From the NCBI GenBank assembly GCA_963786955.1, contig CAWBAT010000005.1, positions 650,860-714,859 of the forward strand: a stretch of 64,000 nucleotides of DNA, given 5' to 3'. A program made the position numbers and the translations under genes. The notes beneath the pieces were generated by a model, which made no database searches, was not told the origin of the DNA, and saw nothing but the letters and a program-made list of their open reading frames with translations. Source of the DNA: an uncultured Acidimicrobiia bacterium. Lineage in GTDB: Bacteria; Acidobacteriota; Terriglobia; Versatilivoradales; Versatilivoraceae. Position 1 is the first letter of the stretch. Each line of letters begins with the position of its first letter. This document shows positions 1 through 44,116 of the stretch, piece by piece.

Positions 1-276
1 CGGGAGCCATAATCCTTCCGCTCACTGTGGGAATCGATTTGGCCATCTGGGCAGCTTTGGGAGTAGCTGCCGGCGGCGGAGGAGGAGGAGGAGGAGGGGG
101 CGGGGGAGCCACAAGATAGGTAACGAACTTTTCCGGATTCAAAGTTTCCGTGAAAAACAGCGGAACTATGATCGCTACGATGAGAACCAAGGAATGGAGA
201 ATGGTCGAAACGATCAATGGAAATATTTTCTTTTGGATTCGAATGTTGGGATTACTCTCAATGAGAAGGTCAAACA
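1..276 (-). CDS. TonB-like energy transducer, N-terminal part (partial; continues past window start)
   Basis: Reverse-strand ATG at 276-274 preceded by AGGAGG. Translation MFDLLIESNPNIRIQKKIFPLIVSTILHSLVLIVAIIVPLFF... gives one TM helix then a Pro10 tract (the GGA/GGC run at 76-108), which is TonB-type architecture. Not in the ORF table because it runs off the edge. Confidence 0.45.
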
Positions 277-375
277 TTTCATCCTCCTTCTAGAAGGAGT
301 TTGTTCGAGGCGGGCGATGCTGAGTCGAAACCGCTTCCTATCCCATTCCTTCCCCCAGCCCACTTGACACAAATT

Positions 376-837
376 TCAGGTCACGAAATCATGTTCTGGA
401 TGTTTCACTGTCAAAACTGGACAGGGCGCCAATCGAACAACTTTTTCGGCGGTCGAGCCAAACACGAGATGGCTGATCCCCTTGTGCCCGTGAGTCGCAA
501 GGGTAATCACATCGATATCCATTTCTTTAGCGCAATTGACAATTTCCAGATACGCCTTCCCGGTCACAAAAAGAGGTTCAGCGTCAATGTTCTTGGCACG
601 TAATTCTTCTGTAATCTGCTCAAGGGTCTTCTTTTCCTGTTCTTGTACCTCAGCACTAAACTCGGGCACCGCGAAATGGTAAGCCTCCATACCCGCCCCA
701 ACAAACGGATGCTCACAGGCATGCATGACATATAATTTCGCCTTGAAGCTTTCCGCAAGGGCGGCGGCATACCGAAGTGCATGTTGCGAGTATTCTGAAA
801 AGTCCGTCGGAAACAAAATCTTTCGGATTTCAATCAT
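376..837 (-). CDS. universal stress protein (UspA family)
   Basis: 153-aa ORF with Usp fold signatures (ILFPTDFSEYS...VMHA...ATHGHKGISHLVFGSTAEKVVRLAPCPVLTV). AGGAGG RBS upstream of the ATG at 837. Confidence 0.85.
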   Translation of the reverse strand: MIEIRKILFPTDFSEYSQHALRYAAALAESFKAKLYVMHACEHPFVGAGMEAYHFAVPEFSAEVQEQEKKTLEQITEELRAKNIDAEPLFVTGKAYLEIVNCAKEMDIDVITLATHGHKGISHLVFGSTAEKVVRLAPCPVLTVKHPEHDFVT

Positions 838-1335
838 AGGAGCCTCCTTGCGGGAGCGAGACTAACCTCATTCAATCGGCTCAGCGGCCTTATCAATAGG
901 TGTGCATGATGGATACCAAAACAAAACATGAAGGGACAGGTTCGAGATCGGAAGACAGATAAAGCTTTGGAGTAGGCAGCAGAAGAGCAGCTCTCTGCGG
1001 TAATTCACCCGCCTTGGGGCAAAAGAGCCGATGGTTTGATAAGCCGAATTGTGCTATGAAGATATGGAGCACGGAAGGAGTTCCCGCAAGAAGGAGGGTT
1101 GTTCACTGATAGCTCCTTGCCGCTTCACCGCCTGCCGGGGAATAGAGCTAAGGACTTTGACACGAGGATTGGCGGATAGACAAGACCATCCCGCCAACTG
1201 GAAGTTTGCATGCCTAACCTGGCGAGTGTGAATCATTGGAGACCCGCTCTTGGTTTGAAATTTAATTTGAGGTTCATCAAATGATATCGCTTTCGAAGCG
1301 CCTGAATAGAGGCCCGTCACCATCTTAATTTACTG

Positions 1336-2799
1336 ATGCGGCTGGCGAAAAATCCCATTTCGCTTCTCGGAATTATCATCACTACGGTCAGCGGCATCCT
1401 GATATTCATCCTGACCATCATGGGGTTTCTCGAGTACCTGGCTAACCCCTACGTCGGGATCATCACCTTCCTCATCCTGCCTGCCTTCTTCATTACAGGT
1501 TTACTTCTCATTCCGATAGGGATCTGGCGGATCAAGCGCCTCCGCCTCCGCCTGCTGGCCGCCGGGAGCACCGTTCCAGAACTTCAGTTTCCGATCTGGA
1601 ATTTCAATGATGCACGGGTTCGAAGGATTGCAACATTTGTCATCATCGCTTCCGTCGTGAATGTGCTCATCCTATCGACGGCTACCTATAAAGGGATTCA
1701 CTACATGGAGGGTGTCGCTTTCTGTGGAACGGTCTGTCATGCCGTGATGAAGCCGGAGCACACAAGCCATGAAAACTCACCGCACTCCCGCGTAACCTGC
1801 GCCAGTTGCCATATCGGACCCGGGGCACCCTGGTTTGTAAAATCAAAGCTTTCCGGAGTTCGTCAGGTTTTCGCGGTCGCACTCCATACCTATAGCACGC
1901 CTATCGAAACACCTGTCCGGAATCTGCGTCCTGCACGGGATACTTGCGAGCAGTGTCATTGGCCTGAAAAATTTCATGACGACCGAGTAAAAGTGATTCA
2001 AAAATATAAGGACGATGAAAAAAATACCCCCATCACAACGGCATTGTTGTTAAAGGTGGGAGGATCCCGGGACAATGCTCGGAAATGGCAGCGGAATTCA
2101 CTGGTGGCATATGGCTCAAGTCAATAAAGTGACCTATATCGCCGACGAGAAGCGGGAAAAGATTTTCTGGGTTGAACACCAGAACATGAAAGGAGAGGAC
2201 ACTGTCTTTGAATTAGAAAACTCCGGCATCTCACCCCAGGAACTCAGCAAATATGAAAAGAGGGTCATGGATTGTGTTGACTGTCATAACCGTCCGACGC
2301 ATATTTACAAACTTCCCGAAGAGGCAGTTGACCAGGCGATCAGTGCTCATCAGATCGACGAAAGCCTCCCTTTTATCAAGAAGGAGGGGGTGGTTTTGCT
2401 CAGAGGCAAACTATCCGAGTGACGTGGAGGCGAAACGCCAAATTGAGTCCGGAATGATGAGTTATTATCAAAAACTATACCCGCAGGTCTATGAGACCCA
2501 GAAAGTCCAAATTCAACAGGCAATCACGGCTTTGCAGAACATATACTCCCGGAATGTGTTCCCTGAAATGAAAGTTGCATGGGGTACCTATCCAAACCAT
2601 CTTGGGTCATGAGAACTTTCCGGGCTGTTTTAGGTGCCATGACGACAGTCATAAGAGTAAGAGTGGCAAAACGATCACGCAAGATTGTAGTGCATGCCAC
2701 GATCTCCTCGCGGTCGAGGAAGAGAAGCCACTCGCTATTTCTGAAATTTTGCAGGGTAAGAATCCCCGCAATAAATTCCTGGATGGCCCACGGACTTAG
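1336..2799 (+). CDS. membrane-anchored multiheme c-type cytochrome, NapC/NirT-related (ImcH/CymA-like quinol dehydrogenase candidate); frame broken about 3 times
   Basis: Two N-terminal TM helices. CxxCH motifs CGTVCH, CASCH, CEQCH, CVDCH, CFRCH and CSACH are spread over ORFs 1336-2127 (f1), 2075-2422 (f2), 2253-2612 (f3) and 2575-2799 (f1). Together these read as one protein of about 488 aa. Confidence 0.65.
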
Positions 2800-2886
2800 T
2801 ACTCCATTTCATAAATACGGTGATGTATCTTAGTACTGCTATTCGTAATTGCGGTGACGTATCTTAAGAATAGGCGCCGCGTGGGG

Positions 2887-2946
2887 TTGAGGCTTTGAGA
2901 AAGCCTCAACGGCCTACAAAGTTGCAGGCCGGGTCACCGACCCGGC
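2887..2946 (+). terminator. two stem-loops downstream of the cytochrome gene (weak terminator candidates)
   Basis: gttgaggctt-tgag-aagcctcaac (10-bp stem, 2887-2910) and gccgggt-caccg-acccggc (2928-2946). No strong U-tract follows either. Confidence 0.3.
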
Positions 2947-3304
2947 GTTAACGTGATCGAATTTCTGAAAGCCAGACCAAAGTACATCCAAAAATTTGCC
3001 AGACGACACTAAAGCCAGAGTTTACAGGTATGAGGGTCAATTTTTGGTGCAAGTCACCGCTGGACAGAGAAGGCTTCTTGCGCTAAATTAATCAACACAA
3101 TCGGATTAATTTGCAGATTTTCTCAACACAATCCGATTCAATCAGTTAATAATTGTTTACTTGCTCTGCATTCGTAACTGTGGGGGAAATAACCGGCTTT
3201 GGATTAAAACTCCCTCTCCAAGTTCTTTCACAGAAAAAATCTAGCAATCATTTAACCTATTCATAAATAACTATTTAATAGAAAATATTTATTTTTTTTA
3301 CCTT

Positions 3305-3320
3305 TGGCAGGAAGCTTGCG
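3305..3320 (+). promoter_or_regulatory. sigma-54 type promoter candidate (-24 GG / -12 GC)
   Basis: TGGCAG-gaagc-TTGCG at 3305-3320, with GG and GC spaced 12 nt apart and about 45 nt upstream of the TTG start at 3365. An AT-rich region and direct repeats (caacacaatcggatt x2 at 3093-3140) lie upstream and could be UAS sites for an enhancer-binding protein. Confidence 0.35.
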
Positions 3321-3364
3321 AAATTATTCACCAGACAAGTAGGGATAGAAGGGAGAAGGTTGAC

Positions 3365-4324
3365 TTGAAAAGGAATCGTGTAATTGTCATTTTTTTATTC
3401 GTTTTTGCGGCAACCTCGGGAACATGGCTGCTGTTTCATCGAGCTCCACGCCCAGGTTCTCTATCGGATGTCAAGAAACGCCCTGAACTCCGTCCGTATT
3501 TTTTGTCGGCCTTGAAACTAGACCAGCCCATAGCTAAGGTTGGGTCAAATGAACTCAAGACTGATGAATTACGCGATTACCTGCTGTTGACATTTCAGGG
3601 CCAGATGACCCAGGTTTCTATCCCCCAGCCCGATCTGGTGGCAAAAATTTCTGGGGCTCTAGACCGGTTGATTGACGAAGAACTGCTGGCGCAAGCCGCG
3701 CAAAAGGAAGGCCTGAAAAGCTCTTTAGAGGGAGTCGAGAGGAAGCAAGACTTGGCGAAGAAGTATCTTGAAAGCCAGCTCGCAAAAGAGCCGCCCGTAA
3801 GCGACGTTCAGATGCGCGACTTTTACAGAAACCATGGTGAGAAGTTTTTGATTCCAGCCGGGGTTCAACTCCGAGAATTTTTCATACCTTTCACAGGGGA
3901 GAAGAGCAAAACGGGTAAAAAAGATTCTGCTTTTGATCTGGCCAAGGATCTAGCCGATCGAGTCACTAAAGGTGATTCAATCGAAGAGCTCAGTAAGAAA
4001 TATGTTTCAGAAGAGTATCGGGAGAGAACCCAAATTCACCTCTACAAAGGCGGCGTGACAGAACCAGTCGATGATCAGAAGGTGCTGGCGCTCCGACCGG
4101 GTCAAAGCGCCGGGCCTTTCCGTACCGAAGGCGGGTATTCCGTTTTTCAAGGGATCTCCCAGGAACGAAGTCGGTTTATTCCGTTTTACGAAGCCAAGGC
4201 TAAGATTCAATTATTTCTGGAAGCACGTCGGGTCGAGAATTTGAGGCAAAAGCTCGTGGATCAACTGAAGCAGCAGATTCCGATCGAGCGATACGAAATT
4301 GATAAACTGATCACAGTCAGTTGA
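3365..4324 (+). CDS. peptidyl-prolyl cis-trans isomerase, parvulin/SurA-like, secreted
   Basis: 319 aa with an N-terminal signal/TM (VIVIFLFVFAATSGTWLL). SurA-N-like helical region followed by a PpiC-type segment (GGVTEPVDDQKVLALRPGQSAGPFRTEGGYSVFQ). TTG start with GGGAGAAGG RBS. Confidence 0.55.
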   Translation: MKRNRVIVIFLFVFAATSGTWLLFHRAPRPGSLSDVKKRPELRPYFLSALKLDQPIAKVGSNELKTDELRDYLLLTFQGQMTQVSIPQPDLVAKISGALDRLIDEELLAQAAQKEGLKSSLEGVERKQDLAKKYLESQLAKEPPVSDVQMRDFYRNHGEKFLIPAGVQLREFFIPFTGEKSKTGKKDSAFDLAKDLADRVTKGDSIEELSKKYVSEEYRERTQIHLYKGGVTEPVDDQKVLALRPGQSAGPFRTEGGYSVFQGISQERSRFIPFYEAKAKIQLFLEARRVENLRQKLVDQLKQQIPIERYEIDKLITVS

Positions 4325-4517
4325 ATTATGCGAAAGAAAGATCTCGATAAAACAGGTTCCAACGTCTGGGAAGGTTTAGAGTTGTCAGAGAGTAAGTGGG
4401 TCAGGGAGTAGGATGTGGAAACATATTGGGAAGTCGCAGAGAAGATTAAGATTCTTGGCCCAGCGAAGGAATGGTTGTACGAATTCTTAACATTTACGCC
4501 CTTTAACGGAGGATGTT

Positions 4518-6576
4518 ATGGTTAGATCCATATCAAGCCGGGTAGTCATCATATGCACGCTCCTCTTCCTGTTCCTAGTCTGGATATCCATCCCAGTCTG
4601 GGGAAGTACGGTAGGGGACACGAAGCAAGGAGTCCAATTTAACAAGCATGAGCTGAGCTATTATCTCGACCAAAGCCAGGTCAATTTTGTCCGCCCTGGA
4701 CTAAAATTCACGATTAAGGCGGTCACGATTAGCGGCGACTAATAGGATTATCGTCACCTTCTTGATTACCGACAACAATGGCTTGCCTCTGGATCGATTA
4801 GGTGTCTCTACACCGGGGGTGGTCAGCACTAGTTTCATAGCCGCATATATTCCCAAGGATCAATCGCAATATACTGCTTACACAACTCGAATACAAACTA
4901 GTCCTATCAACGGAGTAAAGGCTGTGCAAGCCGGTACGGATTCAGGTGGAACTTATGCACAATTGTCTGATGGCCTGTATACATACACTTTCAATACGGT
5001 GCTGCCCTCAAATTTTGATCGAAACATGACTCATACTGTGGCTCTCTATGGTTCACGCAACCTCAGCGAATTCGATCTTGGGATTCAATATGATAACAAA
5101 ACAATTGACTGGGTCCCGAGCGGTGCTCCGGTCACTGTCGTACGCGACGTTGTCGTCACAGCGACCTGTAACCAATGCCACGATCCTTTGGCACTTCATG
5201 GAGGATCACGACGGGAAATCAAGGTCTGCGTGACCTGTCACACCCCTCAAACTACCGATCCGGATACCGGGAACACAGTTGACATGAAGGTCATGGTCCA
5301 CAAGATCCATGCCGGACCCAACTTGCCTAGTGTCAAGGCTGGGAAACCGTATATTATTATTGGCAATAGGCAATCGGTGAATGACTATTCTAATGTAACT
5401 TTTCCCCAAGAGCTCAACCACTGCGAGGGCTGCCATACTGGCAAAGGCACTCAAGTCAACAACTGGCTCTTGAAACCCTCTCGTGCGAGTTGCGGCTCCT
5501 GTCATGACGATGTGAATTTTGCAACAGGTGATAAACATGCCGGCGGCCCGCAGCCGTCGGACAACCTTTGCGCCAATTGTCATGTTCCTGAAGGAGAAGT
5601 GGATTTCGACGCGTCCATTAAAGGCGCTCATGTGATCCCAACATTATCCAAGGATTTGCCTGGGGTCAATTTTGAAATTTTGAACGTCAAAGACACCAAG
5701 CCCGGCAACAAACCGACAGTTACACTGAAGATCACGGATGACGACGGTTTCCCAATCGAAACCTCTCAGATGAACAGTTTAAGCTTAGTATTGGCCGGTC
5801 CGACTACTGACTACGCAGGCTTTGTGTCTGAAAATGCGCTTACAACTAAAAGCCAGGGTGGCATCCTGAACTATACATTCCTGAAGGCTATCCCTGCGGA
5901 CGCCAAAGGTAGCTATGCCATCTCTGTCCAGGGATACAGAAACATAACGCTTCAACCGGGAACCACTAGTGAGGTCAAGGACGTTCGCGATGCAGGATTC
6001 AACCCAGTTGTCTATGTAGCGGTGACGGATAGCAAGCCTGTGCCCCGTCGCCAGGCTGTCTCTCAAGAGAACTGCAACAGTTGCCATGCTCACCTGGCGC
6101 TCCATGGAGGGTCCCGTCAAAATGTTATGTATTGTGTCATGTGCCACAATGCAAATTGGGATGACAAGGCGCGCCGGCCAGCCGACAAACTGCCAGTCGA
6201 ATCCATCCACATGAAAACCATGATCCATAAGATCCACACTGGGGAAGAATTGGAGAATGATTTTACGATCTACGGATTCGGAAATGTTCCGGTCAACTTC
6301 AATGAAGTAACTTTCCCTGGAGATCGTCGCAATTGTGAGAAGTGCCATGTCAATGAATCTCAACAGCTACCGTTAGCGAAGGGAGTATTGCCTTCGGTGG
6401 CGCCGCGAGATTACATCAACCCGATGAAACCGGCGACAGCTGCTTGTCTCACTTGCCATACCTCTCAAGAAGCTGCTTCCCATGCGCTCTTGAATACCTC
6501 CACCCTTGGAGAATCCTGCAGTGTTTGTCACGGAACAACATCCGAATTCTCCGTTGACAAGGTTCACGCGCGGTAA
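4518..6576 (+). CDS. decaheme c-type cytochrome, MtrC/OmcA-like (probable outer-membrane/extracellular); one frame break at about 4742-4762
   Basis: ORF 4762-6576 has 10 CxxCH motifs (CNQCH, CVTCH, CEGCH, CGSCH, CANCH, CNSCH, CVMCH, CEKCH, CLTCH, CSVCH) in 604 aa. ORF 4518-4742 supplies a GGAGGA RBS and signal peptide, and its sequence joins smoothly (…KAVTISGD | ITDNNGLPLD…). Confidence 0.75.
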
Positions 6577-6596
6577 GTCGTTCGCTCGACCCTTAT

Positions 6597-6755
6597 CCAG
6601 CCGCTCTTCGCAGGGCGGCTGGAGTTTCTTGTTGTGTGAATGAAAGGTATCTTCTCACCCCGACCCCTGGAGGTGAGAAGAAATTGTAGCGGCGCTCTAT
6701 GAGCGCCGACCAAGCCGTTGAGATGAAAAGAAGACGGCGGTCACAGACCGCCGCT
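6597..6755 (+). terminator. four consecutive GC-rich stem-loops between the two decaheme genes (terminator/attenuator or REP-like)
   Basis: Hairpins at 6597-6622 (ccagccgc/gcggctgg, followed by a T-rich run), 6651-6680 (cttctcacc/ggtgagaag), 6689-6709 (gcggcgctc/gagcgccga) and 6733-6755 (acggcggtc/gaccgccgt). Confidence 0.45.
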
Positions 6756-6873
6756 ACAACCAATTCTTTCACGCCTTCCCTCTCCACTTGGTGAGGGGAA
6801 CGAATTGAGGATGACCTGAAAGTGTAACTTTACTTCATGCGTTTGTACGAGACACAAGGACGGAAAGAAGAGG

Positions 6874-7878
6874 ATGCAATCGCTTGCCAACCCATTGTCA
6901 TCAACCGGAAAGGGTGTGAATGTTATGCCCGTTCGTCTCTCTAGGAATGCCGCTTTCATCCTGGCGTTCATGTTGACTTTGGTTTTCCCCAGTTTTGCCA
7001 AAACGCCCAAAAGTCAGCAAGCCGCGCAAGAGCCGAGCCCCAAAGCCATCGTGGCTGAGGCAAAGAACGACTATGTCAGCTCAGCTACCTGCTCTTCCTG
7101 TCATGAGGCTCAAACGACGAAATTCGCAACCAACCCCCACCAAATCCTTGATATGAAGGCGGATAAGGGTTGGAAAGATCGTGCCTGTGAAGCCTGCCAC
7201 GGTCCTGGACAAGCCCATGTCGATGCTGGAGATGGAAGTCATGTCGTTCTTCTTAAAAGCAGCTCGACGAACGCCGAAATCAACAAGACCTGTCTCAGTT
7301 GCCACGCGGACAGCAACACGCAGGCAGGGGGGCCCAACAACTTGCATCGAAAGGAAAACCTGGCCTGCACAGAATGCCACTCAATTCACGAACCCAAGCA
7401 GAAGCAGCATTTGCTGACAGCAAGCGTCGATCGAGTTTGCACGGCCTGCCATAAGGATGTTTTAGCAGCGTTCTATATGCCCTTTCATCATCGATTACTC
7501 GAAGGGGCTATTCACTGTGTAGATTGTCACCAGCCGCACAGCGGCCTGATGCCCAAGATGGCCAGACTTTCTTTTGGAAATGAATCGCCCTGCGTCAAAT
7601 GCCATTCCGACAAGCGGGGGCCCTTTGCCTTCGAGCATCCCGTGATGCGCCTCGAAGGATGTATGGCATGCCACGCACCTCATGGTTCCATTAACTCCAA
7701 GATGCTCATTCGGACGCAACTCAGCTTGATGTGTCTGGAATGTCACACTTTTACCCCTGGAGTTTTGGCCAGTCAGCCTCCATCGTTCCATGATTTGCGT
7801 AGTGCCCGGTTTCGGAATTGTACGACTTGTCACGTCAAGATCCATGGTTCCAATGTGGACCGATTCTTAAGGCACTAA
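6874..7878 (+). CDS. periplasmic decaheme c-type cytochrome, MtrA/DmsE/PioA family-like
   Basis: 334 aa with a signal peptide (alternative start at 6925, MPVRLSRNAAFILAFMLTLVFPSFA). It has 10 CxxCH motifs, 9 of them canonical (CSSCH, CEACH, CLSCH, CTECH, CTACH, CVDCH, CVKCH, CMACH, CTTCH) and one CLECHT. Size and heme count match MtrA-type porin-inserted cytochromes. Confidence 0.8.
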   Translation: MQSLANPLSSTGKGVNVMPVRLSRNAAFILAFMLTLVFPSFAKTPKSQQAAQEPSPKAIVAEAKNDYVSSATCSSCHEAQTTKFATNPHQILDMKADKGWKDRACEACHGPGQAHVDAGDGSHVVLLKSSSTNAEINKTCLSCHADSNTQAGGPNNLHRKENLACTECHSIHEPKQKQHLLTASVDRVCTACHKDVLAAFYMPFHHRLLEGAIHCVDCHQPHSGLMPKMARLSFGNESPCVKCHSDKRGPFAFEHPVMRLEGCMACHAPHGSINSKMLIRTQLSLMCLECHTFTPGVLASQPPSFHDLRSARFRNCTTCHVKIHGSNVDRFLRH

Positions 7879-7890
7879 CAGAGCTAATCC

Positions 7891-9983
7891 ATGCGAAACC
7901 TGAGAAAAATGCGCCAGACGGTTCCTCAGTTCTTTACAGGTTGGGTTCCTCTACGTCTCCATACCCAGCGGCGACGGGGCCCAGGAATGTTTTTCTTCTT
8001 GCTCATACTGAGCTTCGGGGGGAGTTTTCTTCACGCGCAAGAGCGACCGTTTGAAAATCCCAAGTCGGCCCCGGACACTGGCAATCCGGTTCTGATTCGT
8101 GGGATGGAGGCTACCGGGGTCGTCGATGTGGGTTATCGCAGTATTGCCGGATTTAACGGGAGTCAAGACTACTATCGGAGTGTTGTCAACCTGGGTAATG
8201 GCCCACGCCTTCTCTTCGCGAATATGGATTTTCAGAGCCCACTGGGGACCAAGAAATATTTCGACAAGCTTCATTTCGATGCGTCGGCTTGGGGTGGTGA
8301 TCCTTACAACACCATTCGCGTCTATGCGCAAAAAGCCGGAGTTTATGAGTTCAATTTCAATTACCGGAACGTGGATTACTATAATTATATCCCCACTTTT
8401 GCCAACCCTCTGCTGCTCGAAGGAGTCCTGGTAGGTCAGCATTCATATGATACGGCGATTCGCACTATGGATTTTGATTTGACCCTTCGTCCGGGAAAGA
8501 AAATCTCTCCATATTTTTGCCTACTCTCGATCTTCTGGTTTTGGCCCGGGAATCACCACATTCACCGGAGCCGGCAACGAATTCCCCGTTAACAACAATG
8601 TGAGCAACAGTAGTAACTATTATCGTGGTGGTGTGACACTGAATCTTCGCAAGACTAATCTGATCTTCGAACAGGGCGTCGTGTCGTTTAAAGACGATCA
8701 AACGGTTTACTGGCAGGGAGGAGTGAATAAGGGAAACCGTAAAACACCCCTGCTTGGTGAAACAACCTATCTGGATCAACTCGACGAGTACTATCATGTA
8801 CGTGGGACAACTCCAGTCAGCCGATTTCAAATCGTATCGACACCATGGGAAAAATTGACTGTCACCGGCCGGTTCGTCTATACCCAGCCGAATTTAGAAT
8901 TTTGATTATAACCAACGCTCTGCCGGGAATTTTGTTTCTTTTGAGGTGGCAAGGATTTTCACCGGCGATGTCTCTAATGCCGTTTCAGACGGAAAGTTGC
9001 CGCACATTCTGGGAAACGTATCCGTTGAATATCGACCTTGGGAAAGGGTTCGGATAATCGACAATCTGATCACGGACCGATTTCATACCGACCCCAGTTC
9101 TACTCTCGGGCGCACCTTGACTGGTACCGATCCTCTGTCTGGCTCTCCGGACCCTGACGGGACGTTTAGCTATACCACGACAGATTCGAATCGTCTGGCT
9201 GTGAATCTGAATCAAAATCAGTTGGAGGGAATCGTCGATCTCACCTCCAAACTCTCAGTACGAGGCGGTTATCGCTACGTGTGGTCTGATACCCAATTAG
9301 TCTCATTCAATCTGGAGGGCGAAAACCAGGCCATTAGCATCAACCGCAATGTGGCGATAGCAGGGTTTAATTACCGGCTGCAACGTAAGGCCAGCCTGGG
9401 GCTGGATTTAGAGATTGGCCAGGGGAACCGAGTCTTTTCTCGAACGGACATTCTCGATTACCAGAAAGTTCGCATCCGTGGGCGTTACAAGATCTGGAAC
9501 CCCCTGGTGATTAGTGGATCCTATTTTCTGCTGAACTACCAAAACGGCCAGCGGGATATCGATTACAATTTCAATAGTTACGGTTACAGCCTTTCCGCCA
9601 TTGTGGCTCCCAAAGGCGGGAAGCGATTCATGGCGACCTTGGACTATTCCAAAGGCGATCTTAATTCGGATATTCTAATCCTGATTCCTCAAACTCTGAC
9701 GAGGAGTCAATCCATTTATATTGAAAACAGTAATTTCGGAAACTTGAACCTTGATTTCGGGATCTACCGGGGTTTTCGATTTAATTTGGGCGGTTCGGTG
9801 ATGACAACCTCCGGGAATCGTCCGCTGAATTATTATCAGCCCCACGCCGGTTTTCTCATTCCCCTGGGTAGCAAGTTGTATTGGACAACCGAATGGCGTT
9901 ATTACGACTTCAATGATAAAGAATTTGCTTTCCAGGATTTTAGAGTTCACCTGATTACCGCCGGAATTCGATTCCGCTATTGA
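7891..9983 (+). CDS. large outer-membrane beta-barrel, MtrB/PioB-like porin candidate; 2 frame breaks
   Basis: ORFs 7891-8592 (f1), 8600-8905 (f2) and 8946-9983 (f3) are contiguous and together give about 697 aa. Signal peptide MFFFLLILSFGGSFLHAQE. Alternating amphipathic Y/F/N/G-rich strands, with a C-terminus …GIRFRY typical of OM barrels. Sits immediately 3' of the MtrA-like gene. Confidence 0.55.
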
Positions 9984-9993
9984 TTTTTCCGAT

Positions 9994-11215
9994 ATGACGC
10001 ATGGTCCATTTGCCTGCATAGAGCGCATCCTGCACTCGAGGAGAGGTGCAAGTATGAGAGTAGCTGCTGCCATACTGATTGGCCTGTTGGGGACGCTTTC
10101 GTCCCTGGGACAAACACCTCAGAAGGTGAAGCTTTCTGATTTCAAGCTCGCTTCGAGTTGCCAGCCCTGCCACGAGGAGATTTATGCTCAGTGGCAAACC
10201 TCGACCCATTCCAAGGCATTTGTCGATCCTTTATACCAAGCAGTTGTCCGTAAAGCCGTCGAGGAAAGCAAAGGGGGCTTAACCCAATTTTGTGTTTCCT
10301 GCCACGCACCCCTGGCGACCGTCACCAGTTCCATTCCACCCGATCTGTTTCAGAAAGAGCAGATAGACCCACGGATTGAGAACGGGGTAACCTGCGAGTT
10401 CTGCCACACGATCTCTGGTAACAGAAGTGAACCTTAACAAACTCAGTCTCGGGGCTTTCCTTTTCCCAAGAGCTATCCAAACGAAAATTCTTTACGGACG
10501 GCATGCGGATGCTACCAACGATGCGCATCCGACCCAACCCTCGCCGTTTCTTGTTGTCCCGGAATTATGCGGGACCTGCCATCGATTTGGACACCCCGTT
10601 TCAGGGATGCCGGTTCAAGACACCTATCAGGAATGGAAGCAAAGTCCCTATGCCGCAAAAGGGACCCGATGTCAGGATTGCCATATGCCCTCGTATCAGG
10701 GGAAAGTGTCTGAGTCAGGCAAAGAACGTTCTGAAATTCATGCCCACATTTTTAGGGGCGGACACACGGAAATGATACGACAGGCGGCCATCGTCAATAT
10801 CACGGCTAATCGAGACTACATCGAACCCCTAGATGCGTCGGTGGTAGTCACTAATGTCGGAGCCGGCCATATGATCCCGACCGGACTCCCTGCTGTCCGT
10901 GAGATGTGGTTAGAGGTTACAGTCCAGAGCCAAGGGAAAATCTTGAGTACTCAAAAGAGGGTTTTCGGCCTGGAAGTTCTCAATGCGGAAGGGAAGCCGG
11001 CTTTGCCGTGGGAAGCCACGAAGCTCGGGAAAGACACCCGGATTGCCCCTAAGAAATCCCGTTTAGAGAAGTTTCGATTCGAGGTTTCCGGTTCGGAAAA
11101 CATTCGCATTGAAGCCAAGCTCCAGGAACAATTATTGTCCGACCAGGCCGCCAAATTTGCTGGCATTCCGCCCACTCCGCCTCAATCGATGGCAGAAACA
11201 TCGATCTCCTGCCTC
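9994..11215 (+). CDS. periplasmic multiheme (>=5 CxxCH) c-type cytochrome; frame break near 10430; 3' end uncertain
   Basis: Signal peptide, then CQPCH, CVSCH, CEFCH, CGTCH and CQDCH across ORFs 9994-10437 and 10427-11356. The table ORF reads through into the start region of the next gene. Confidence 0.6.
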
Positions 11216-11216
11216 A

Positions 11217-12079
11217 ATGAGTTCAGCTCCGGGTACCGAGGAGAATTTCCCTCTCCAACAGTTCGCGATGCGGCTTTCTTTGGCCGTGGGCTTTTTCATG
11301 CTCGTGACCAAAACCTTCGCCTACTGGCTGACTGGGTCGGCCGCAATCCTCTCTGATGCTGCAGAATCCGTCGTCCATGTCGTTGCCGTTTCCTTTGCGG
11401 CTTACAGTCTTGGCTCAGTGTCAAACCGGCGGACCGCAGCCATCTGTACGGACATGATAAGATCAGTTTCTTCTCGGCGGGGTTTGAAGGGGCGATGATC
11501 ATCATCGCCGCTTTCTATATCATCTATGTTTCAATTGAAAAATGGATTTCAGGGCTGAGGCTGGAGCACCTTGGCACGGGAACGGGCCTGACCTTATCTG
11601 GCCTCTGATCAACGGCGGCTTAGGTCTTTATCTGGTCACCATTGGGAAGAAGAAACCACTCTCTAATTCTTGAGGCCAACGGGAAACATGTCCTCACGGA
11701 TTGCTGGACAAGTCTGGGCGTTGTCGTCGGCCTGTTCCTGGCCATGATCACGGGCTGGTTGGTTCTGGATCCGATTATCGCGATCCTGGTAGCTTTAAAT
11801 ATCCTGTGGACCGGCGGTCAATTAATCCGCCGATCCATCGGTGGTTTAATGGATGAGGTGGATCCGGAAACAGAGGCAAGAATCAAGAGCATGCTTGACC
11901 CGATTACCAAACCCAAGGCATCGAATACCATAGTCTGCGACACCGGAACACGGGAAGTACGCTCTGGATCGAACTGCATATGCTTTTCCCCAAAGGGATC
12001 CTGCTGGAAAACGCTCACGCGATCGCCACCCAGATTGAAAACCGTTTAAAGACAACCTTCCCACTAAGACCGAAGTAAC
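11217..12079 (+). CDS. cation diffusion facilitator (CDF) family metal efflux transporter; multiple frame breaks
   Basis: Fragments in three frames carry CDF signatures: LSLAVGFFMLVTKTFAYWLTGSAAILSDAAESVVHVV…, …HLYGHDKISF…, the TM region ILEANGKHVLTDCWTSLGVVVGLFLAMITGWLVLDPIIAILVALNILWTGGQLI, and a C-terminal cytoplasmic domain …KGILLENAHAIATQIENRLKTTFP. Confidence 0.6.
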
Positions 12080-12962: not shown

Positions 12963-13404
12963 CACTTCATTTGGCACCTTTTCGTCATGGCAGGTACAGC
13001 CTGTCATTTCATCGCAGTCTTGCGGTTTGCATTCTGACAGCAGAGAGCATTTGCGGGCTTGGAAAAATCAAATCACTGTACTGAAGTCAGATTTGAAAGA
13101 ACCGACCAACCCCTTTCTAATCCCCTCCAAAGGGCGGAGTGTCGAGAGCTTCTGGCAAAGGATAAATCCGGCCAAGGAGACAATTCCCAGCTTTCACCCC
13201 CTCTCTCATATCGCTTTTGTCTTGAAAAAGACTCCTTCCTTGCGTATTCTTTGGCATGCCAATGGCTTTTGCAGTCTCCGCGCAGGCCACGAGGGACCCC
13301 GAGGGGATGTCCCTTCTTGAAATTGTCACTCCCCGCTCGAAATTTGCTTATCTTCTTGAAGAGTTCAGTCGTTTCGGGAAAATCGGACTCCAGGTGATTC
13401 CATT

Positions 13405-15873
13405 TTGAGTCGTCAAAGTCCACTCTCAAAACCTGACAACATGGATCCTAATCTGGTCTTTGTACGTGTTGAAGGTGATGTTTTGTCTCTGCGCCCATTC
13501 CGCATACTGGCTCACTATGCGCGGAATGCTCAGGCCTTTACAGAGCGGGCCTTCCGACTCCCTGCCGTCGACTCTCATGACTCTCCTGCGGCCGGCCTTA
13601 TCCGTTGAAAATCCTGTTCTGGGGACTCGACTGCTCTATCTGCCACTTCGCGGAATGAGCCGCGACAGACTCGATCTTCTGGGCGAAGAATATTTCAACT
13701 ATGTTTTGTCTTCCCGATTAAGAAAGGAAGGGATTCGCCATATCGAAGAATTGCACGCGATGGGCAAAGAAGATCGTATTCGTGAGCGATCAATTGGATC
13801 ATCTCATCCGACCTCTGGCACTCCACCTTAAAGCCCATTTTCTCGCTACGAATCGCCTCGAATTTCGGGATGATCTGGCAACAGGGAGGCTTCTTGAACC
13901 TGTCATCCCCGCTTTGGGGGTCACCGCCGGTTTAACCTCGACGGAACGGAAAGAGTCCACCGGCTGGAAGGCCTTCGAAAAGGAGGTGGGGCCCCAAGAA
14001 TTCTCGACGGTGAATCCTCTTTCGATTCTCCCCGTGCACCGCCGAATCCGGGCGATCCATCATCCTATGGTCCAGTTCGCAAGACGGGATTCCACACTGA
14101 AGCCGTTGTCGGTCCGTGGAAGTTTATCCGGCAAAAAGATTCTTTTAATCGGCTGCACCGGATTCATCGGGAAGGTATGGCTGACCATGCTGCTGAAGGA
14201 TTTACCCGAAATCGGCCGCGTCTTCTTGCTGATCCGGCGTCATGGAAAACGGTCGGCACTGCAACGATTTGAAAAAATTGTTGCACGAGTCTCCGACCTT
14301 CAAACCCTTTCATGAATCCTATGGCAATCAGCTGGGTGAGTTTCTCGCTGAACGGATTGAGGTTATCGAGGGAGACGTTTCAGAGCCCCACCTAGGCCTT
14401 AACCCACAAACCGCTCGGCGCCTGTATGGCGAGCTCGATCTCATTGTCAATTCAGCAGGTTTGACAGATTTCAATCCGGACCTCCGGCTGGCCCTTTCGA
14501 CCAATGCGGACAGCGTGTTGCACCTGATCGAGTTTCTCAACAATTCGCAGAAGGCAGGGCTAGTCCATATTTCCACGTGTTTTGTTAACGGTCGCACCGA
14601 CGGCCGGGTCCCTGAAGAATTGCGGCGCAATTACACACCGAAAGGCAGAGTTGAATTTGACGCCATCTCAGAATGGAAGTTTCTGCACCAGGAAATCAAA
14701 CGGGTCGAAGAAGAATCTGAAAGCCCTTCACTCAACGAACAATTCCGAACCCAGGTGGTTTCCCGTTGGAAGGATGGGGAAGAAGCAGGTCCCGGACAGA
14801 AAGGTATTCAGAACCGGATCCGCAATTTGCGGACTCGCTGGGTGCGTGATCAGTTGATCGAAATGGGAGTGCAACGAGCTCAATATTGGGGATGGCCTAA
14901 CATCTATACCTTTACCAAGAGCCTTGGAGAATCCCTCCTGGAAAACAAAGGAGCCAGGCTCCCCTTCAGTATCGCACGGCCCTCCATAGTGGAATCCTCG
15001 GTTTTTCAGCCGTTTCGAGGCTGGAATGAGGGAGTGAATACGACAGCCCCGCTTTCCTATCTGCTCGGCACCTATTTTCGTCAGCTTCCGTCCAACAAGC
15101 GAAAGCGGCTCGATGTCATACCGGTCGACTTGGTCTGCAGAGGGATAACCCTGATTGCCGCCGCGCTAGTGCAACGAGGTCATGAAAAAGTTTATCAGCT
15201 TGCAACCTCTGCGACGAACCCGGCGAACATGCGACGGACGATTGAGTTGACCGCGTTAGCCCATCGTAAGCATTATCGTTCTTTGGAGGGGCTAGAACAT
15301 TGGCTTCGGGCCCGGTTCGACGCGATTGCCGTTTCGAAAACCCGCTACAAATACGTGTCCCTGCCAAGATTAAAAGGATTGCTACAAAGCGCTGAGAGCG
15401 TCCTTTCGCTCTTGCCATTCAAAGGGGACACTCTGGTGCGAAAGCAAAGGGCCCTGGACCGAGTGCAAAAAGTCATCGGACTTTACGAGCCTTTCATCTT
15501 GGATAATGACTACTTCTTTGCCGCCGATCATATCAAGGCGCTGGCCGAGTCGCTGCCGGATGAGGAGGCTCAAACGTTTGGTTACGATGTCTCTTCGATC
15601 GATTGGTATGACTACTGGATCGATCTCCATGTCCCGGCCTTGAGACGATGGACTTATCCTTTAATCGAAGGGCGTCGCCCGGAAACAGGCTTGTTACCGC
15701 GAAATTTCAAGCTCCCGGTAAAAGAAGAAGGTCATACTTCCGAGCTTTCGGAATCACTCGACCCAGCCTCAGCTAAGCCAGCAACTTCTTTGCTTCCATC
15801 CGAAAATTTGGGCAATGCTGCCGGGGCACCGGCAGGAGATAATTTTCAGGTGGCTGACCAGGATGGTAATTGA
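13405..15873 (+). CDS. HAD-IB-like hydrolase domain apparently fused in frame to a fatty acyl-CoA/ACP reductase (NAD_binding_4 / male-sterility domain); about 3 frame breaks
   Basis: N-terminal part resembles HAD-IB (…EDRI[V]FVSDQLDHLIRPLALHLKAHFLATNRLEFRDDLATGRLLEPV). In-frame continuation with no stop leads to a Rossmann motif KKILLIGCTGFIGKV. ORF 14242-15873 holds the reductase core (…DLIVNSAGLTDFNPDLRLALSTNADSVLHLIEF…HISTCFVNGR…) and a FAR C-terminal domain. Confidence 0.55.
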
Positions 15874-17019
15874 GCATAACTATGGCTACTTTTGTTACAG
15901 GCTCAACAGGATATCTTGGGGCCCATGTTGCTTCGGAGCTGCTCTCAAAACATAACTCTAAGTTAAGCCTCCTGGTGCGAGCCAAAGATCACCGGGGGGC
16001 TGAGTTGAAACTTTGGAAGGCCATGCAATTACACCTCGGATTTTCCGAGTTTGTCCATTGGCTAGAAACAAACATCGAAATCTTTCTTGGCGACATTACT
16101 CTCCCCCGCTTTCGGGTTAGATGAAGAACAGTACGTCCAGCTGCTCAAGAAGACTGATTCGGTCCTTCATATCGCGGCATCGCTAAATCGTCGCTCCGAG
16201 AAATCCTGCCTGAACGTAAATCTTCGCGGCACGCTGGAAGTGCTTCAGTTCGCCCGGAGAGTTAGTTCCTATCATGGCCTTCGGCGTTTCAGCCACGTGA
16301 GCACAGTCGCCGTCGCGGGAGCACGAAGCAACGAAGTTGTCAAAGAGGACGAATCCATTGATTGGAACCGGTCGGATTTTGACCCGTATGCGAGAACCAA
16401 GAAGTTCAGCGAGCTGATGATTCGGGAATTGCTTCCTGATATCCCCTTGACCATCTTCCGTCCTAGCATTGTTTTGGGGGATAGCCGCTATGGCGCGACA
16501 ACCCAATTCGACATGGTGGAGGCATTCGTCTTCTTAGCGAAATTAGGGTTGCTTCCACTGCGACCTCACGATCGTTTGGACATCGTGAACGTCGATTTTG
16601 TCGCCAATTCCATTGTCTCTCTCCATCAAAAGGAGAAAACCTTATACGATACCTACCATTTATCTTCTGGCGTTCATTCCCCTACCTGCCGGCAGATTAC
16701 TGAGGCGCTCAGCGCCGCTCGACAGAGGAAGGGGCCCTTCTACCTGCCATCTCTCGCAAATCCTTTTAAGGGAATCGTGAACTGGATGGCAAATCGTCGT
16801 GGAACTTCTGTGGGGCACCTGGGATCATTACTCAAGGTTTTCTTACCTTATCTCTTATGGAACACCGTATTCGACAATCAACGAGCGGTTCAAGAAGTCG
16901 GCCAGCATCCTGTACCTTTTCCTGAGTACTGCTACCCTTTGTACAATTTCTCGGTCAAGCACAATTTTGCTTATCCTTACCAGGACTGGCCGGCGCTTGA
17001 AGGGAGTTCCACCGCATGA
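15870..17019 (+). CDS. SDR-family thioester reductase / NAD-dependent epimerase-like (second acyl reductase); one frame break near 16090-16124
   Basis: [11 protein letters not shown] Rossmann motif, then …[28 protein letters not shown]…[10 protein letters not shown]…[12 protein letters not shown] (YxxxK), which is a TE-reductase pattern. ATGA start overlaps the upstream gene. Confidence 0.6.
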
Positions 17020-18425
17020 TGGATCCATTGCTGGAGCTTTGGGTTGCGGGACTGGTAGAGCTGGCAAAGACCCGATGGATCCTGGGCTTCGGTCAGGCTT
17101 GGACCCCAGGCTCTCCTCTCCGACTCCTCTTTGCAGGATACAATGGAAACCGTAACACCGGCGCCGATGTCCGGGTCGAGGAAATGATCCGTCAAATTCG
17201 CCGAGTTCTGGGGGATGAGCATATTGACCTCAGTGTTCTCTCGCATAACCTAGAACTTTCGAAAGGTTATTTCCCCACCGTCCAACAGGTTAAGCTTCCG
17301 GATGTGTTTCCGCCCTTCTTATTTCGAGAAATACCCCGCTATCACGGCGTCATCACCTGTGAGGGATCGATGTTTAAGAGCAAGTTTGCCAATGCCCTAA
17401 CGACGATGATGATCGGGGCCCTGGGCATTGCCACGGCCGAAAATAAAGTCTCGATCGGGTACGGCGCAGAAGCCGGATCGATGGATCGCCTGCTGCAGAG
17501 CATGTGTCGCCGCTATTGCGCCAGTTCGCTGGTTGTGACACGCAACGAAGAGTCTCAAAAAGTGTTGGGAGATTTAGGAATCCAAACGGAATTGGGAACG
17601 GATACGGCGTGGACATTTGAACCGCACGGGTTAGATTATGGGAGAAAAGTTTTACTCGATGCCGGCTGGGACGGTCGTACCCCCATCTTGGGTTTGTGTC
17701 CGATCAATCCTTTCTGGTGGCCGGTAAAACCATCAATTCTGAAACTGCTGATGAATAAGTCGGCAGGCTTTTATCGGGATAGCCATTATCGCTCGATTTA
17801 TTTCCATAACGATGGAAAAGAAGTCAACGCAGCCTTCTTCCGTTATCTTGAAGCATTCGTCGCTGGGATCCAAGAGTTTCGAAAAGAGCACGCCGTCTTC
17901 CCCGTATTGATCGGGATGGAGGCATTAGATCGCCGTGCTTGCGAAATCATGGGACAGAAGCTTGATCGAGTCCCTCTATTCATTTCAGATCAATATGACA
18001 TGTACCAATTGGTCAGTATTCTGCGCAATTGCCACCTTTTGCTCTCTTCCCGTTATCACGGTATCGTGACATGCATGCCCACACTGGTTGCATCAGCCGG
18101 AGTGACCATGGATGAGCGTATTCGCAACCTCATGCGTGAAAGAGGTCACACGGATCTGTTACTGGAGGTAGATGATCCGGACCTTTCATCAAAACTGGTG
18201 ATCGTGTTGCGAAGACTCATCAAGAATTCTGAAGAAATCCGACAGGGGATTGGAAAAACCGTGGTCAGGAATCTGAAGATGATGTCGAGGATGGGTATTT
18301 ATCTTCAGCAAAACGTCCAAGAACGATATCCGGAATTCCCCGTCCGGACAGGACACTATTCCTGGGAAGACTATCTGCCATCCTTGAGCCCAACTCTGCA
18401 GAAACTGATAGAAGAGTTTGAGTAA
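17016..18425 (+). CDS. polysaccharide pyruvyl transferase family-like protein (function uncertain)
   Basis: 469 aa. N-terminal [16 protein letters not shown] and C-terminal …[30 protein letters not shown] resemble PS_pyruv_trans (CsaB-like) motifs. Start overlaps the preceding stop (ATGA). Confidence 0.4.
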
Positions 18426-18790
18426 AGAACTGGCGTGAGCTGTAGCTGCGGTCCTCGAGCATCAGATAACTGACAAAGTCATGGGATCCGGCAGCCATAA
18501 ACTGTCGCCTCCGTCGGTTTATCCCGAATTCCGAAGTTGGGCGAGGGGGATTTCTATCTATTTACTGATTTACATGAGACTTGCAAGACGCTCAGGAAAG
18601 GGAAAATGTATACTGATGGCCTGCGGATTCAGGTGGAACGCGCGCTCCGCCGCGCGTTCATTGAGCGTGCCCGGGGGGACAGCGGTCCCACGCGCACGCT
18701 CCACCTTGCGACGCTCACGCACTTTCGGAATTCGAGTTTATCCGAGCTTGAAAGGAACGATTAAAGATTGCAACAGGCAAAGACGCAGCG

Positions 18791-20494: not shown

Positions 20495-20499
20495 AGCCC

Positions 20500-21180
20500 A
20501 TGATTCCATTGCCCCTAGCCAGAAGACTTGTTCGAGCATTGATGACCTGGGTGGTTTTGATGGCACTGATGCTTTCAGCCTGGGGATGGAATCGGCTCGC
20601 CGGATTCGGGGCGGAATGGCCAAGACTCCTCTTGCCTTTTGTATGGCTCATTTTCTCACTTTACGGAGCGTGGAGGGACACGCAAACCAGCAGTTCGGAG
20701 GGGAAGAATGAGGTGCGCAACCACCGGCGAATGCTCCTGTTTTTTCTACCGGTCTTTGTCTTGTGGTTTTTCTACCTTCCTTATTCGGATCAAAGAGATG
20801 GCCCCGCCTTTTCTTCCACTCCCTTACGCTGGGTTGGGCTGGTTTTTTTTGCAATCGCTCTGTTGCTCCGGATTGAAGCAATCCGAGCGCAAGGCAAGCA
20901 ATTCAGTTATGCTGTGACGATTCAAGACGGCCACCAACTGGCACTTCAAGGCCCGTACCGATGGATCCGTCACCCGGCTTACCTGGGAGTTATCGGGATG
21001 TTTTGCGGACTCTCTTGGGTATTCGCAAGATTTGAGCTGGGGCTCCTGATGGCACTTTTGGTATGGTTGTGGATGGAATCGCGCATCCGGGATGAAGAGA
21101 AATTGTTGCTTGAGGAATTTGGAAGAGATTACGCTCATTATCGCCAGAAAACGGCAAAGCTTGTACCCTTTGTCTACTGA
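20500..21180 (+). CDS. isoprenylcysteine carboxyl methyltransferase / phospholipid methyltransferase family membrane protein
   Basis: 226 aa, multi-TM. C-terminal signature …GPYRWIRHPAYLGVIGMFCGLSWVF…EEKLLLEEFGRDYAHYRQKTAKLVP is the ICMT/PEMT family motif. Starts 6 nt after the ligase stop. Confidence 0.7.
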   Translation: MIPLPLARRLVRALMTWVVLMALMLSAWGWNRLAGFGAEWPRLLLPFVWLIFSLYGAWRDTQTSSSEGKNEVRNHRRMLLFFLPVFVLWFFYLPYSDQRDGPAFSSTPLRWVGLVFFAIALLLRIEAIRAQGKQFSYAVTIQDGHQLALQGPYRWIRHPAYLGVIGMFCGLSWVFARFELGLLMALLVWLWMESRIRDEEKLLLEEFGRDYAHYRQKTAKLVPFVY

Positions 21181-21280
21181 CGGGTAGTAGAATTCCTAGG
21201 ACTAAGCATTTCGAGAAAGTCGGGTCAGGATTTTGCCCCAACAGGCGTCAACAAAAATCTTGGGATAGAAATCACACTCA

Positions 21281-24083: not shown

Positions 24084-24097
24084 TAATTCGTGCGTTA

Positions 24098-25790: not shown

Positions 25791-26211
25791 GACCGCTCAA
25801 GAGGGTTGGAATCGTTCTTCGAGCGGTAATTCACTGGTCACAGTTCTTCTCTCCTCTAATCCGCATGTAGATTCAATTCACTCCGGCACTATCGTATTAG
25901 TCCCACGCGGCCTCCTTGTGATGCAGGCGTCCCACCTGCAGCTCGCGATTGGACATTTCGGGAGAGGATAGGGCGCGACCGCTGGGGCGGCGCGCCGCGG
26001 ACGGCCTATGAGTTCAGCCCGCGGCCAGGAGGTTCTGTCGGCGCGCGGTCACTGTTGTGCTCCTCAGTTGTGGGTCGCGAATCTATCGGTCTCTTCACTT
26101 CGCCTGCTCAAAGTCTGTCTACTGCATAGTCTCGCCCACAATACGGTCATCCGCGTGAGACAGTCAGGTGCATTGAAAATGCCGTCGTCGATCTTTGGCT
26201 CCACTCACCTG

Positions 26212-27402: not shown

Positions 27403-27474
27403 GGTGCAGGATCCTTAGAACTCAAGCCCCGGCCGCAGCAGGGTGCCTTGCGCGGTGGTCTTCCCAGATAAAAA

Positions 27475-44107: not shown

Positions 44108-44116
44108 TATAGCCCT

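Follow-up and report, generated by a model that had tools for sequence, protein, structure and literature searches.

A six-haem ImcH-family cytochrome gene beside an mtrCAB-type cluster in a Terriglobia metagenome contig, and the probable assembly origin of its frameshifts

The 64,000-nt stretch of DNA analyzed in this work (positions 650,860 to 714,859 of contig CAWBAT010000005.1, assembly GCA_963786955.1, from an uncultured bacterium of the Terriglobia; hereafter the window) carries near its beginning a multihaem cytochrome gene that the deposited sequence breaks across several reading frames. We consider it very likely that this gene encodes an ImcH-family, six-haem, quinol-oxidizing cytochrome which probably feeds the mtrCAB-type conduit encoded just downstream, and that the single-base insertions and deletions (indels) interrupting it are consensus errors of a long-read assembly. 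As to the interruptions themselves, the frameshifts are almost certainly assembly errors and not gene decay, judging from the sequence comparisons given below, and the gene would then be intact in the organism.

Reconstruction and family assignment of the ImcH-like protein

A preliminary description of this locus, made from the sequence alone, had proposed that four overlapping open reading frames (ORFs) in frames 1, 2, 3 and 1 together encode one protein. All four are present on the plus strand (1336-2127 in frame 1, 2075-2422 in frame 2, 2253-2612 in frame 3 and 2575-2799 in frame 1), and intact orthologous proteins cross them in that order in tblastn comparisons against the window. The indels were located by nucleotide alignment to L003, a JGI contig that is 93.5% identical, together with protein alignment to orthologues. 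This comparison, which the preliminary description had suggested for placing the indels, puts inserted bases at 1304, 2080, 2403 and 2602 and one lost base after 2766; the three frame changes seen earlier are all real features of the deposited sequence, while a fourth +1 change at ~1304 and the deletion had been missed. With these positions corrected the coding sequence is 1491 nt long, has no internal stop, and is collinear with L003, L002 and L001. The gene bounds, previously given as 1336-2799, therefore become 1281-2774 by protein and nucleotide alignment, and the length of the product becomes 496 aa instead of roughly 488. This corrected product is 97% identical to the orthologue P0001, and intact orthologues have 496 or 497 aa. 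The start is placed at the ATG at 1281 (frame 3), as the equivalent Met begins the orthologues in the protein alignment. At the other end, the deletion after 2766 masks the true stop (taa, 2772-2774), and the deposited frame gains 8 spurious codons up to 2799.

The stitched four-ORF protein has more than 8000 homologues of ~450-500 aa (best 95% identity, E=0), and the best of them are proteins of 496 or 497 aa with 86-95% identity to the stitched sequence. The closest named homologue, from a Terriglobia metagenome-assembled genome (MAG), is 'NapC/NirT family cytochrome c [Terriglobia bacterium]' at 87% identity. Close homologues of the gene are already in public databases under the generic 'NapC/NirT' name.

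Judged by its sequence features, the product of 1281-2774 belongs to the six-haem subtype of the ImcH inner-membrane multihaem cytochromes c, a known family to which it adds a new member. By its published definition this family has three helices, a CX3CH motif by the third helix, and then five to nine CXXCH motifs (PMC4251993; PMC6295460), and we assign the window protein to it because it has the three helices, the CX3CH and five further CXXCH. The earlier placement among inner-membrane quinol dehydrogenases of the ImcH-like class thus appears to be correct, although two of its details change. Two transmembrane helices had been counted, where hydropathy of the corrected protein (segments ~24-50, 56-84 and 112-137) and the AlphaFold2 (AF2) model (helices 25-49, 56-93 and 111-142) both give three; the model is that of P0001, 97% identical to the corrected window protein. 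The estimate of at least six CxxCH is right in the number of haem motifs, which is six, and wrong in their type, as one is CX3CH and five are CXXCH. Their spacing in the corrected protein is 25/49/109/117/20, and in the AF2 model haems 3 and 5 are separated by a beta-rich insertion of ~100 aa and a helical domain.

The relation to the NapC/NirT proteins is limited to one part of the sequence. PF03264 (Cytochrom_NNT) matches at 35.3 bits (gathering score 24.1), with no more than positions 7-102 of the 174-position profile covered, and the NrfH structure 2j7a_C matches with E=8e-4 over profile positions 125-239. The resemblance to NapC, NirT and NrfH is confined to helix 3 and haems 1-3, and the PF03264 match is best read from these alignments as shared ancestry of this core, not as full NapC/NirT membership.

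The best-characterized relative is ImcH of G. sulfurreducens (GSU3259), a multihaem cytochrome of the inner membrane that oxidizes menaquinol and is required when the extracellular acceptor is of high potential (PMC4251993; bioRxiv 10.1101/2023.05.03.539133); the menaquinol oxidation and the requirement in reducing such acceptors are known only for this one protein (PMC4251993). Two proteins from Geobacter sp. MAGs, L072 (504 aa) and L078 (520 aa), stand in for it here, both with seven haem motifs, 44% identity and E~1e-139. For L072 the 44% identity extends over aa 24-480, and its residues E127, H137, K173, Q179 and Y188 have exactly the GSU3259 numbering of the residues that make up haem 1 and the quinol pocket in G. 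sulfurreducens ImcH (Pimenta et al.). The window protein has E143, H153, K189, Q195 and Y204 at the same offsets, with E143, K189, Q195 and Y204 surrounding haem motif 1 at -10, +36, +42 and +51 from the haem-1 His. All three alignments have H153, K189 and Q195 without exception; the constancy of E143 and Y204 is limited to close relatives, with E143 replaced by Asp in L004 and L042 and Y204 by Trp in L078.

Like Geobacter ImcH, then, the window protein has three N-terminal helices, a CX3CH right after helix 3, a NapC/NirT-like core and the E/K/Q/Y offsets. Unlike it, the window protein has six haem motifs and not seven, lacks the ~38-residue C-terminal extension with haem 7, and carries a 19-aa N-terminal extension. 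The assignment to the six-haem subtype is made because the alignment stops before the Geobacter C-terminal extension with its CSDCH/CSECH motif.

The six-haem subtype has been catalogued for Geothrix, Anaeromyxobacter, Solibacter and others, and Table S3 of Zhong and Shi 2018 gives motif positions for 71 ImcH homologues (PMC6295460), among them Zixibacteria RBG-1 EQB63199.1, Geothrix fermentans, Candidatus Solibacter usitatus Acid_0432 and RIFCSPLOWO2_12_FULL_66_21 OFW24447.1. We scanned species-representative genomes for imcH homologues, and the matches listed are all at or below 51% identity. The protein from Zixibacteria RBG-1 (L004, 478 aa) has 48% identity (E=5e-160) and exactly the motif spacing of the window protein. 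The one from Acidobacteria RIFCSPLOWO2_12_FULL_66_21 (L042, 455 aa) departs from this spacing in a single interval (115 vs 117), and the Geothrix positions in Table S3 match after correction for the 1-residue shift in that table's indexing. The architecture of the window protein is identical to that of these six-haem homologues, and the lineage it comes from is a different one.

Origin of the frameshifts

It is clear from the substitutions that the corrected imcH-like gene is under strong purifying selection. The ratio of non-synonymous to synonymous substitution rates (dN/dS) of the corrected coding sequence is 0.046 relative to L003, and the branch leading to the window holds 42 synonymous and 7 non-synonymous changes and no nonsense codon.

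The indels themselves have a distinctive character. All of those in imcH are single-base, four insertions against one deletion, and the events in and near the gene (1304, 2080, 2403, 2602, 4739, 8513, 8896 and ~10420) are insertions. Most insertions lie at non-homopolymer sites; an explanation by homopolymer errors was rejected for this reason. Every indel in imcH sits in a codon that varies among the relatives, and the window letters at 1304, 2080 and 2602 are those of two observed alleles placed in tandem (alleles in Table 1). The inserted base is an alternative allele at an adjacent alignment column in 4 of the 4 window events and in 3 of the 5 events of L088, a related contig; with a null probability of 0.18 per random insertion, the binomial P is 1.7e-4.

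Comparison of assemblies points the same way. The fragments of the window's ORFs are recorded exactly on an NCBI/ENA contig of 1,759,374 bp, a size that points to a long-read metagenome assembly. Intact genes for proteins of 496 or 497 aa are found in the short-read contigs L003, L090 (with a 'k141' contig name) and L091 (JGI records), and also in L001, a MAG locus not counted among the short-read contigs. L088 (434,678 bp, ~88-90% identical) has its imcH broken by five single-base insertions, mostly at other positions than in the window (L088 4692-6187); L088 also has whole copies of genes that are interrupted in the window, and its rotamase gene, intact in the window, is broken. In L002, from the same ENA series, imcH is intact and other genes are broken. 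The preliminary description had preferred an intact gene with assembly indels over decay, and that preference holds up well given the low dN/dS, the polymorphic sites of the indels, the intact short-read relatives and the contig of 1.76 Mb. As separate observations on these relatives, a 260-aa gene and a cytochrome b gene are split in L002 (8208-8993 and 1252-2920), and mtrC of L001 is in two pieces of 190 and 448 aa (13040-15092; NCBI MAG).

The distribution of the interruptions along the window was mapped with a Pfam survey and a codon-usage Viterbi path. Same-strand frame switches are dense in 1-25 kb (~20 or more, ~0.9 per kb), several occur in 51-61 kb, and by these two methods none occurs in 26-50 kb, which is about 24 kb. 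Examples from the first region are a Cation_efflux domain split across ORFs, NAD_binding_4 domains interrupted at ~14235 and ~16119, four switches within an AMP-binding gene (from 22357 to 24071), an enoyl-CoA hydratase (ECH) gene switched at ~21419 and a YegS gene at ~24418. Near full-length domain matches are found in 26-50 kb for two sulfatases, an aldehyde dehydrogenase, an enoyl-CoA hydratase, a GDP-mannose dehydratase, RmlC and NuoA/D/F/G/H/I. The frame-change pattern, taken earlier to be window-wide, is thus regional, and a uniform error rate across the window was rejected on the comparison of 0 switches in ~24 kb with ~0.9 per kb in 1-25 kb. We suspect local strain diversity or coverage behind the patchiness.

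As for the exact origin of the errors, we infer from the sequences that the consensus step may have merged reads of co-occurring strains, keeping both alleles at a variable site (+1) or neither of them (-1). Merging of this kind would explain the patchiness, as errors would arise only where strains differ, and also the insertion at a Lys/Arg codon that is common to the window and L088, where the L088 insertion lies 1-2 nt from the window 2403 site, at the codon 375 boundary.

Several points weigh against an assembly origin or against the functional part of our interpretation. The indels were judged from assembled sequences and not from reads. The density in imcH (~3-4 indels/kb) is higher than in its neighbours (~0.5-1/kb; Poisson P roughly 0.005), and imcH is also the most damaged gene in L088, a possible hint of a gene-specific cause. 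One insertion position (coding-sequence position ~1121-1123) coincides in the window and L088. The 26-50 kb region without frameshifts means that the error process is not uniform, its cause being deduced indirectly. Quinol oxidation and coupling to MtrCAB, for their part, rest on homology and gene neighbourhood only. High strain diversity in imcH would explain both its indel density and the damage in L088 equally well, an explanation that is sufficient but unproven.

If the frameshifts were real, imcH and much of 1-25 kb, including mtrC and mtrB, would be recent pseudogenes of a lineage in the process of losing extracellular electron transfer. The clustering of frameshifts would suit this, as selection on essential genes would spare a region such as 26-50 kb with its complex I genes, and so would the excess of indels in imcH over its neighbours and its breakage in L088. 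We nevertheless find such decay improbable. Five neutral indels should bring dozens of unconstrained substitutions, which is not the pattern that the dN/dS value and the counts of synonymous, non-synonymous and nonsense changes describe, and the non-essential genes of 26-40 kb (two sulfatases, HAD, aldehyde dehydrogenase) are likewise intact. Bacterial mutation is biased towards deletions, whereas the indels here are mostly insertions at non-repeat sites, and at several of them the inserted bases reproduce, in tandem, alleles known from relatives. Related long-contig assemblies also differ in which genes are broken, and every short-read relative is intact. Programmed +1 ribosomal frameshifting, or some other recoding that yields one protein from the deposited sequence, would account for the four frame changes all being +1, but we give it almost no credence: orthologues with 86-97% identity read through these sites in one frame, the sites have no motif in common, and like shifts are scattered over unrelated neighbouring genes. 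With assembly error as the preferred cause, the combination of single-base insertions, strain-variable sites and both alleles in tandem can serve as a signature of consensus errors in long-read metagenomes. Such errors break genes in patches and could be mistaken for pseudogenization of a whole electron-transfer module.

Linkage to mtrCAB-type genes and proposed electron flow

An OmcA/MtrC-MtrA-MtrB-type cluster lies just downstream of the imcH-like gene, in agreement with the association to a porin-cytochrome conduit that had been proposed earlier. mtrC comes first, then mtrA, mtrB and a further multihaem gene (4518-11220), and imcH stands ~1.7 kb upstream of mtrC. The L002 orthologue of 4518-6576 scores 531.6 bits with TIGR03507 (OmcA/MtrC decahaem; cut-off 209.3) and the orthologue of 6874-7878 scores 245.4 bits with TIGR03508 (DmsE/MtrA decahaem; cut-off 192.2), while the MtrB_PioB match of the 694-aa product of 7891-9983 is sub-threshold at 19.1 bits. 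The order Usp - imcH - PpiC/SurA-like rotamase is common to L001, L002, L088, L090 and L091; the longer of the relatives' contigs continue into multihaem cytochrome genes, with the same synteny in L001, L002 and L088.

The linkage recurs at larger distances. Among 80 distant imcH loci taken from the matches listed (L004-L083), MtrA-like and MtrB-like genes occur together within 10 kb in 18, and MtrC, MtrA and MtrB all occur in 6 (L007, L028, L035, L045, L049 and L056). Previous surveys give a different picture: Zhong and Shi 2018 report no mtrAB adjacent to imcH (PMC6295460), and Baker et al. 2022 describe mtrCAB in five Acidobacteriia (Group 5) without an inner-membrane quinone oxidoreductase near mtrCAB. 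The recurrent linkage of imcH to mtrAB or mtrCAB, reported absent by these two surveys, is one modestly new observation of this work. It supports, without proving, the idea that imcH may feed an outer-membrane conduit. If the linkage is functional, ImcH would be a candidate for the inner-membrane protein through which electrons enter Mtr-type metal respiration in acidobacteria. A broader proposition is that an ImcH-type quinol oxidase is the dedicated inner-membrane partner of an MtrCAB-type conduit both in the present Terriglobia lineage and in a considerable share of other Acidobacteriota, along with some MAGs of Hydrogenedentota, Nitrospiraceae and Gammaproteobacteria, and we give this an even chance of being correct. 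If true, it would describe a hybrid of a 'Geobacter' inner-membrane module and a 'Shewanella' outer-membrane module, it would supply the quinone oxidoreductase reported missing near the Group 5 acidobacterial mtrCAB (Baker et al. 2022), and it would contradict the statement in the 2018 survey that no mtrAB stands next to imcH.

A scheme for electron flow can be outlined with this in mind. Three N-terminal helices would anchor the protein in the cytoplasmic membrane, and menaquinol would be oxidized by haem 1 (the CX3CH haem) at a pocket on the periplasmic face lined by E143, K189, Q195 and Y204, with the protons released to the periplasm and the reaction consequently electroneutral. Electrons would then pass along the six c-haems to periplasmic acceptors, of which the likeliest, reached directly or via a soluble cytochrome, seems to be MtrA of the adjacent mtrCAB-type conduit, and from MtrA through MtrC to extracellular acceptors of the Fe(III)/Mn(IV) type. 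The quinol-oxidase chemistry is carried over by analogy from Geobacter ImcH, and we infer likewise the coupling to MtrCAB, the direction of electron flow and the identity of the partner. The setting differs from that in G. sulfurreducens, where imcH is monocistronic; the window gene stands beside an mtrCAB-type cluster, and its protein is known from sequence.

Two other functions may be weighed against this scheme. Public annotations name homologues 'NapC/NirT family cytochrome c' or 'nitrate/TMAO reductase-like tetraheme cytochrome c subunit', and PF03264 scores above threshold with weak NrfH and TorC matches, all of which would suit a classical tetrahaem quinol dehydrogenase of the NapC/NirT/CymA/NrfH type serving a periplasmic nitrite, nitrate, trimethylamine N-oxide (TMAO) or dimethyl sulfoxide reductase. 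The window protein is indeed like NrfH/NapC/NirT/CymA (2J7A chain C) in its membrane helix, its haem 1-3 region and the presumed transfer from quinol to a periplasmic partner. These proteins, however, have one helix, four CXXCH motifs, ~160-200 aa and a haem 1 of the form CXXCHxM, against three helices, a CX3CH plus five CXXCH and 496 aa in the window protein. The scores for the NCBIfam equivalogs are also far below their cut-offs (NrfH 43.3 vs 134.2; TorC 18.4 vs 478.2, and 17.8 vs 455 for a second model), the napC_nirT model of NCBIfam has no match to the corrected protein, and no reductase gene is found near imcH, whose neighbours are mtrCAB-type genes. We therefore consider a tetrahaem function highly unlikely. 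The label 'NapC/NirT-like' of the preliminary description is sound for the PF03264 core and too broad for the whole, as the tetrahaem family does not fit in helix number, haem number or length.

The alternative that the protein is a functional ImcH homologue working in reverse, reducing quinone with electrons that arrive via MtrCAB from Fe(II) or other extracellular donors, also seems unlikely, though less so than a tetrahaem function. In its favour, nothing in the sequence fixes the direction, and Mtr/Mto-type conduits and partners of the CymA/MtoC type are known to work both ways (PMC6295460). ImcH homologues, on the other hand, have so far been implicated in quinol oxidation only; Geobacter ImcH and its periplasmic partner PpcA have overlapping haem potentials (-350 to -150 mV for ImcH), and high-potential acceptors are thought to drive the outward transfer. 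Extracellular decahaems of the MtrC/OmcA type are typical of reducers, which also counts against it.

Feature coordinates and further observations in the region

Table 1. Features of the imcH-like gene, its product and the adjacent genes (window coordinates).
Feature	Coordinates	Strand	Basis or remark
Shine-Dalgarno-like GAGG, 8 nt upstream of ATG 1281	1269..1272	+	sequence read directly
One A more than in L003, 5' untranslated region	1279	+	nucleotide alignment
Whole imcH-like gene	1281..2774	+	4 inserted bases removed and 1 deleted base restored give 496 aa
Inserted base 1, frame 3 to frame 1	1304	+	ct[G][A] = CTG (L001) + CTA (L003) in tandem
Transmembrane helix 1, ~aa 25-49	1354..1428	+	hydropathy; AF2 model of P0001
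Transmembrane helix 2, ~aa 56-84	1447..1533	+	hydropathy; AF2 model of P0001
Transmembrane helix 3, ~aa 112-137, homologous to the single NrfH/NapC anchor	1615..1692	+	hydropathy, AF2, PF03264, 2j7a_C
Haem motif 1, atypical CX3CH (CGTVCH), C148-G-T-V-C-H153, directly after helix 3	1723..1740	+	
Haem motif 2, CASCH	1798..1812	+	aa 173
Haem motif 3, CEQCH	1945..1959	+	aa 222
Inserted base 2, frame 1 to frame 2	2080	+	gCTC = GCT (Ala, L003) + GTC (Val, L002) merged
Haem motif 4, CVDCH	2273..2287	+	aa 331
Inserted base 3, frame 2 to frame 3	2403	+	Lys/Arg-variable codon 374
Inserted base 4, frame 3 to frame 1	2602	+	[C][T]tg = CTG (L003/L002) + TTG (L001) in tandem
Haem motif 5, CFRCH	2626..2640	+	aa 448
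Haem motif 6, CSACH	2686..2700	+	aa 468
Single-base deletion	2766..2767	+	T/G-variable first base of codon 495
Predicted junction-spanning peptides of the corrected imcH-like product			examples: VGGSRDNAGNGSGIHWWH, EGVVLLKANYPSDVEAK, GTYPNHLGHENFPGCFR
PpiC/SurA-type rotamase-like gene between imcH and mtrC, intact	3365..4324	+	position kept in L001, L002, L090, L091
OmcA/MtrC-family decahaem gene	4518..6576	+	1-nt insertion at 4739
MtrA/DmsE-family decahaem gene, intact	6874..7878	+	
MtrB-like putative outer-membrane barrel gene	7891..9983	+	1-nt insertions at 8513, 8896; PF11854 19.1 bits, below cut-off 23

A scan for promoters and terminators around the imcH-like gene gave counts no higher than those in shuffled sequence. 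Downstream of the gene a direct repeat, ggtga[t/c]gtatctta, occurs at ~2819 and ~2852, and is followed by two GC-rich hairpins (2885-2911 and 2928-2947) that lack a T tract; for the region 2819-2947 the fold z-score is -3.3.

Within the conduit region, the multihaem cytochrome gene downstream of mtrB has an insertion at ~10420 and a deletion near 11209, and compensated +1/-1 pairs are found at 5442/5449 and 10546/10560 (within 4518-11220). In L001 and L002 the sequence upstream of the equivalent of the window start (positions 1-9000) holds a Rieske/cytochrome b/multihaem module, together with pyruvate:ferredoxin oxidoreductase genes and an acetyl-CoA hydrolase/transferase gene; this arrangement in the relatives suggests a larger respiratory neighbourhood.

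A lipid-type cluster occupies 13400-25800, with two fatty-acyl-reductase-like genes (NAD_binding_4 + Sterile), two AMP-binding enzymes, an ECH with a fused PP-binding carrier domain, an ICMT/PEMT methyltransferase, a YegS-like lipid kinase, an acyltransferase and a polysaccharide pyruvyl transferase. Frameshifts are numerous across this cluster in the window; L088 has it intact, with gene calls that reach the pyruvyl-transferase gene only. The minus-strand region 26000-34000 is a GC-rich island (57-61% GC vs about 50% elsewhere) with two intact sulfatases (27665-30076 and 32020-33654) and a HAD-like gene, and could be a horizontal acquisition or an assembly chimera.

The complex I set at 42691-50292 is unusual: it consists of nuoA, a 360-aa ORF with weak DHH/DHHA1 matches, nuoD, nuoF, nuoG, nuoH and nuoI, with no nuoB, nuoC or nuoE ORFs evident in between. 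Further along, RHS-repeat ORFs at 51001-52548, 53755-54420, 54727-55995 and 57662-58150 look like fragments of at least one large RHS/YD protein, and a TonB_C ORF is located at 55949-56413.

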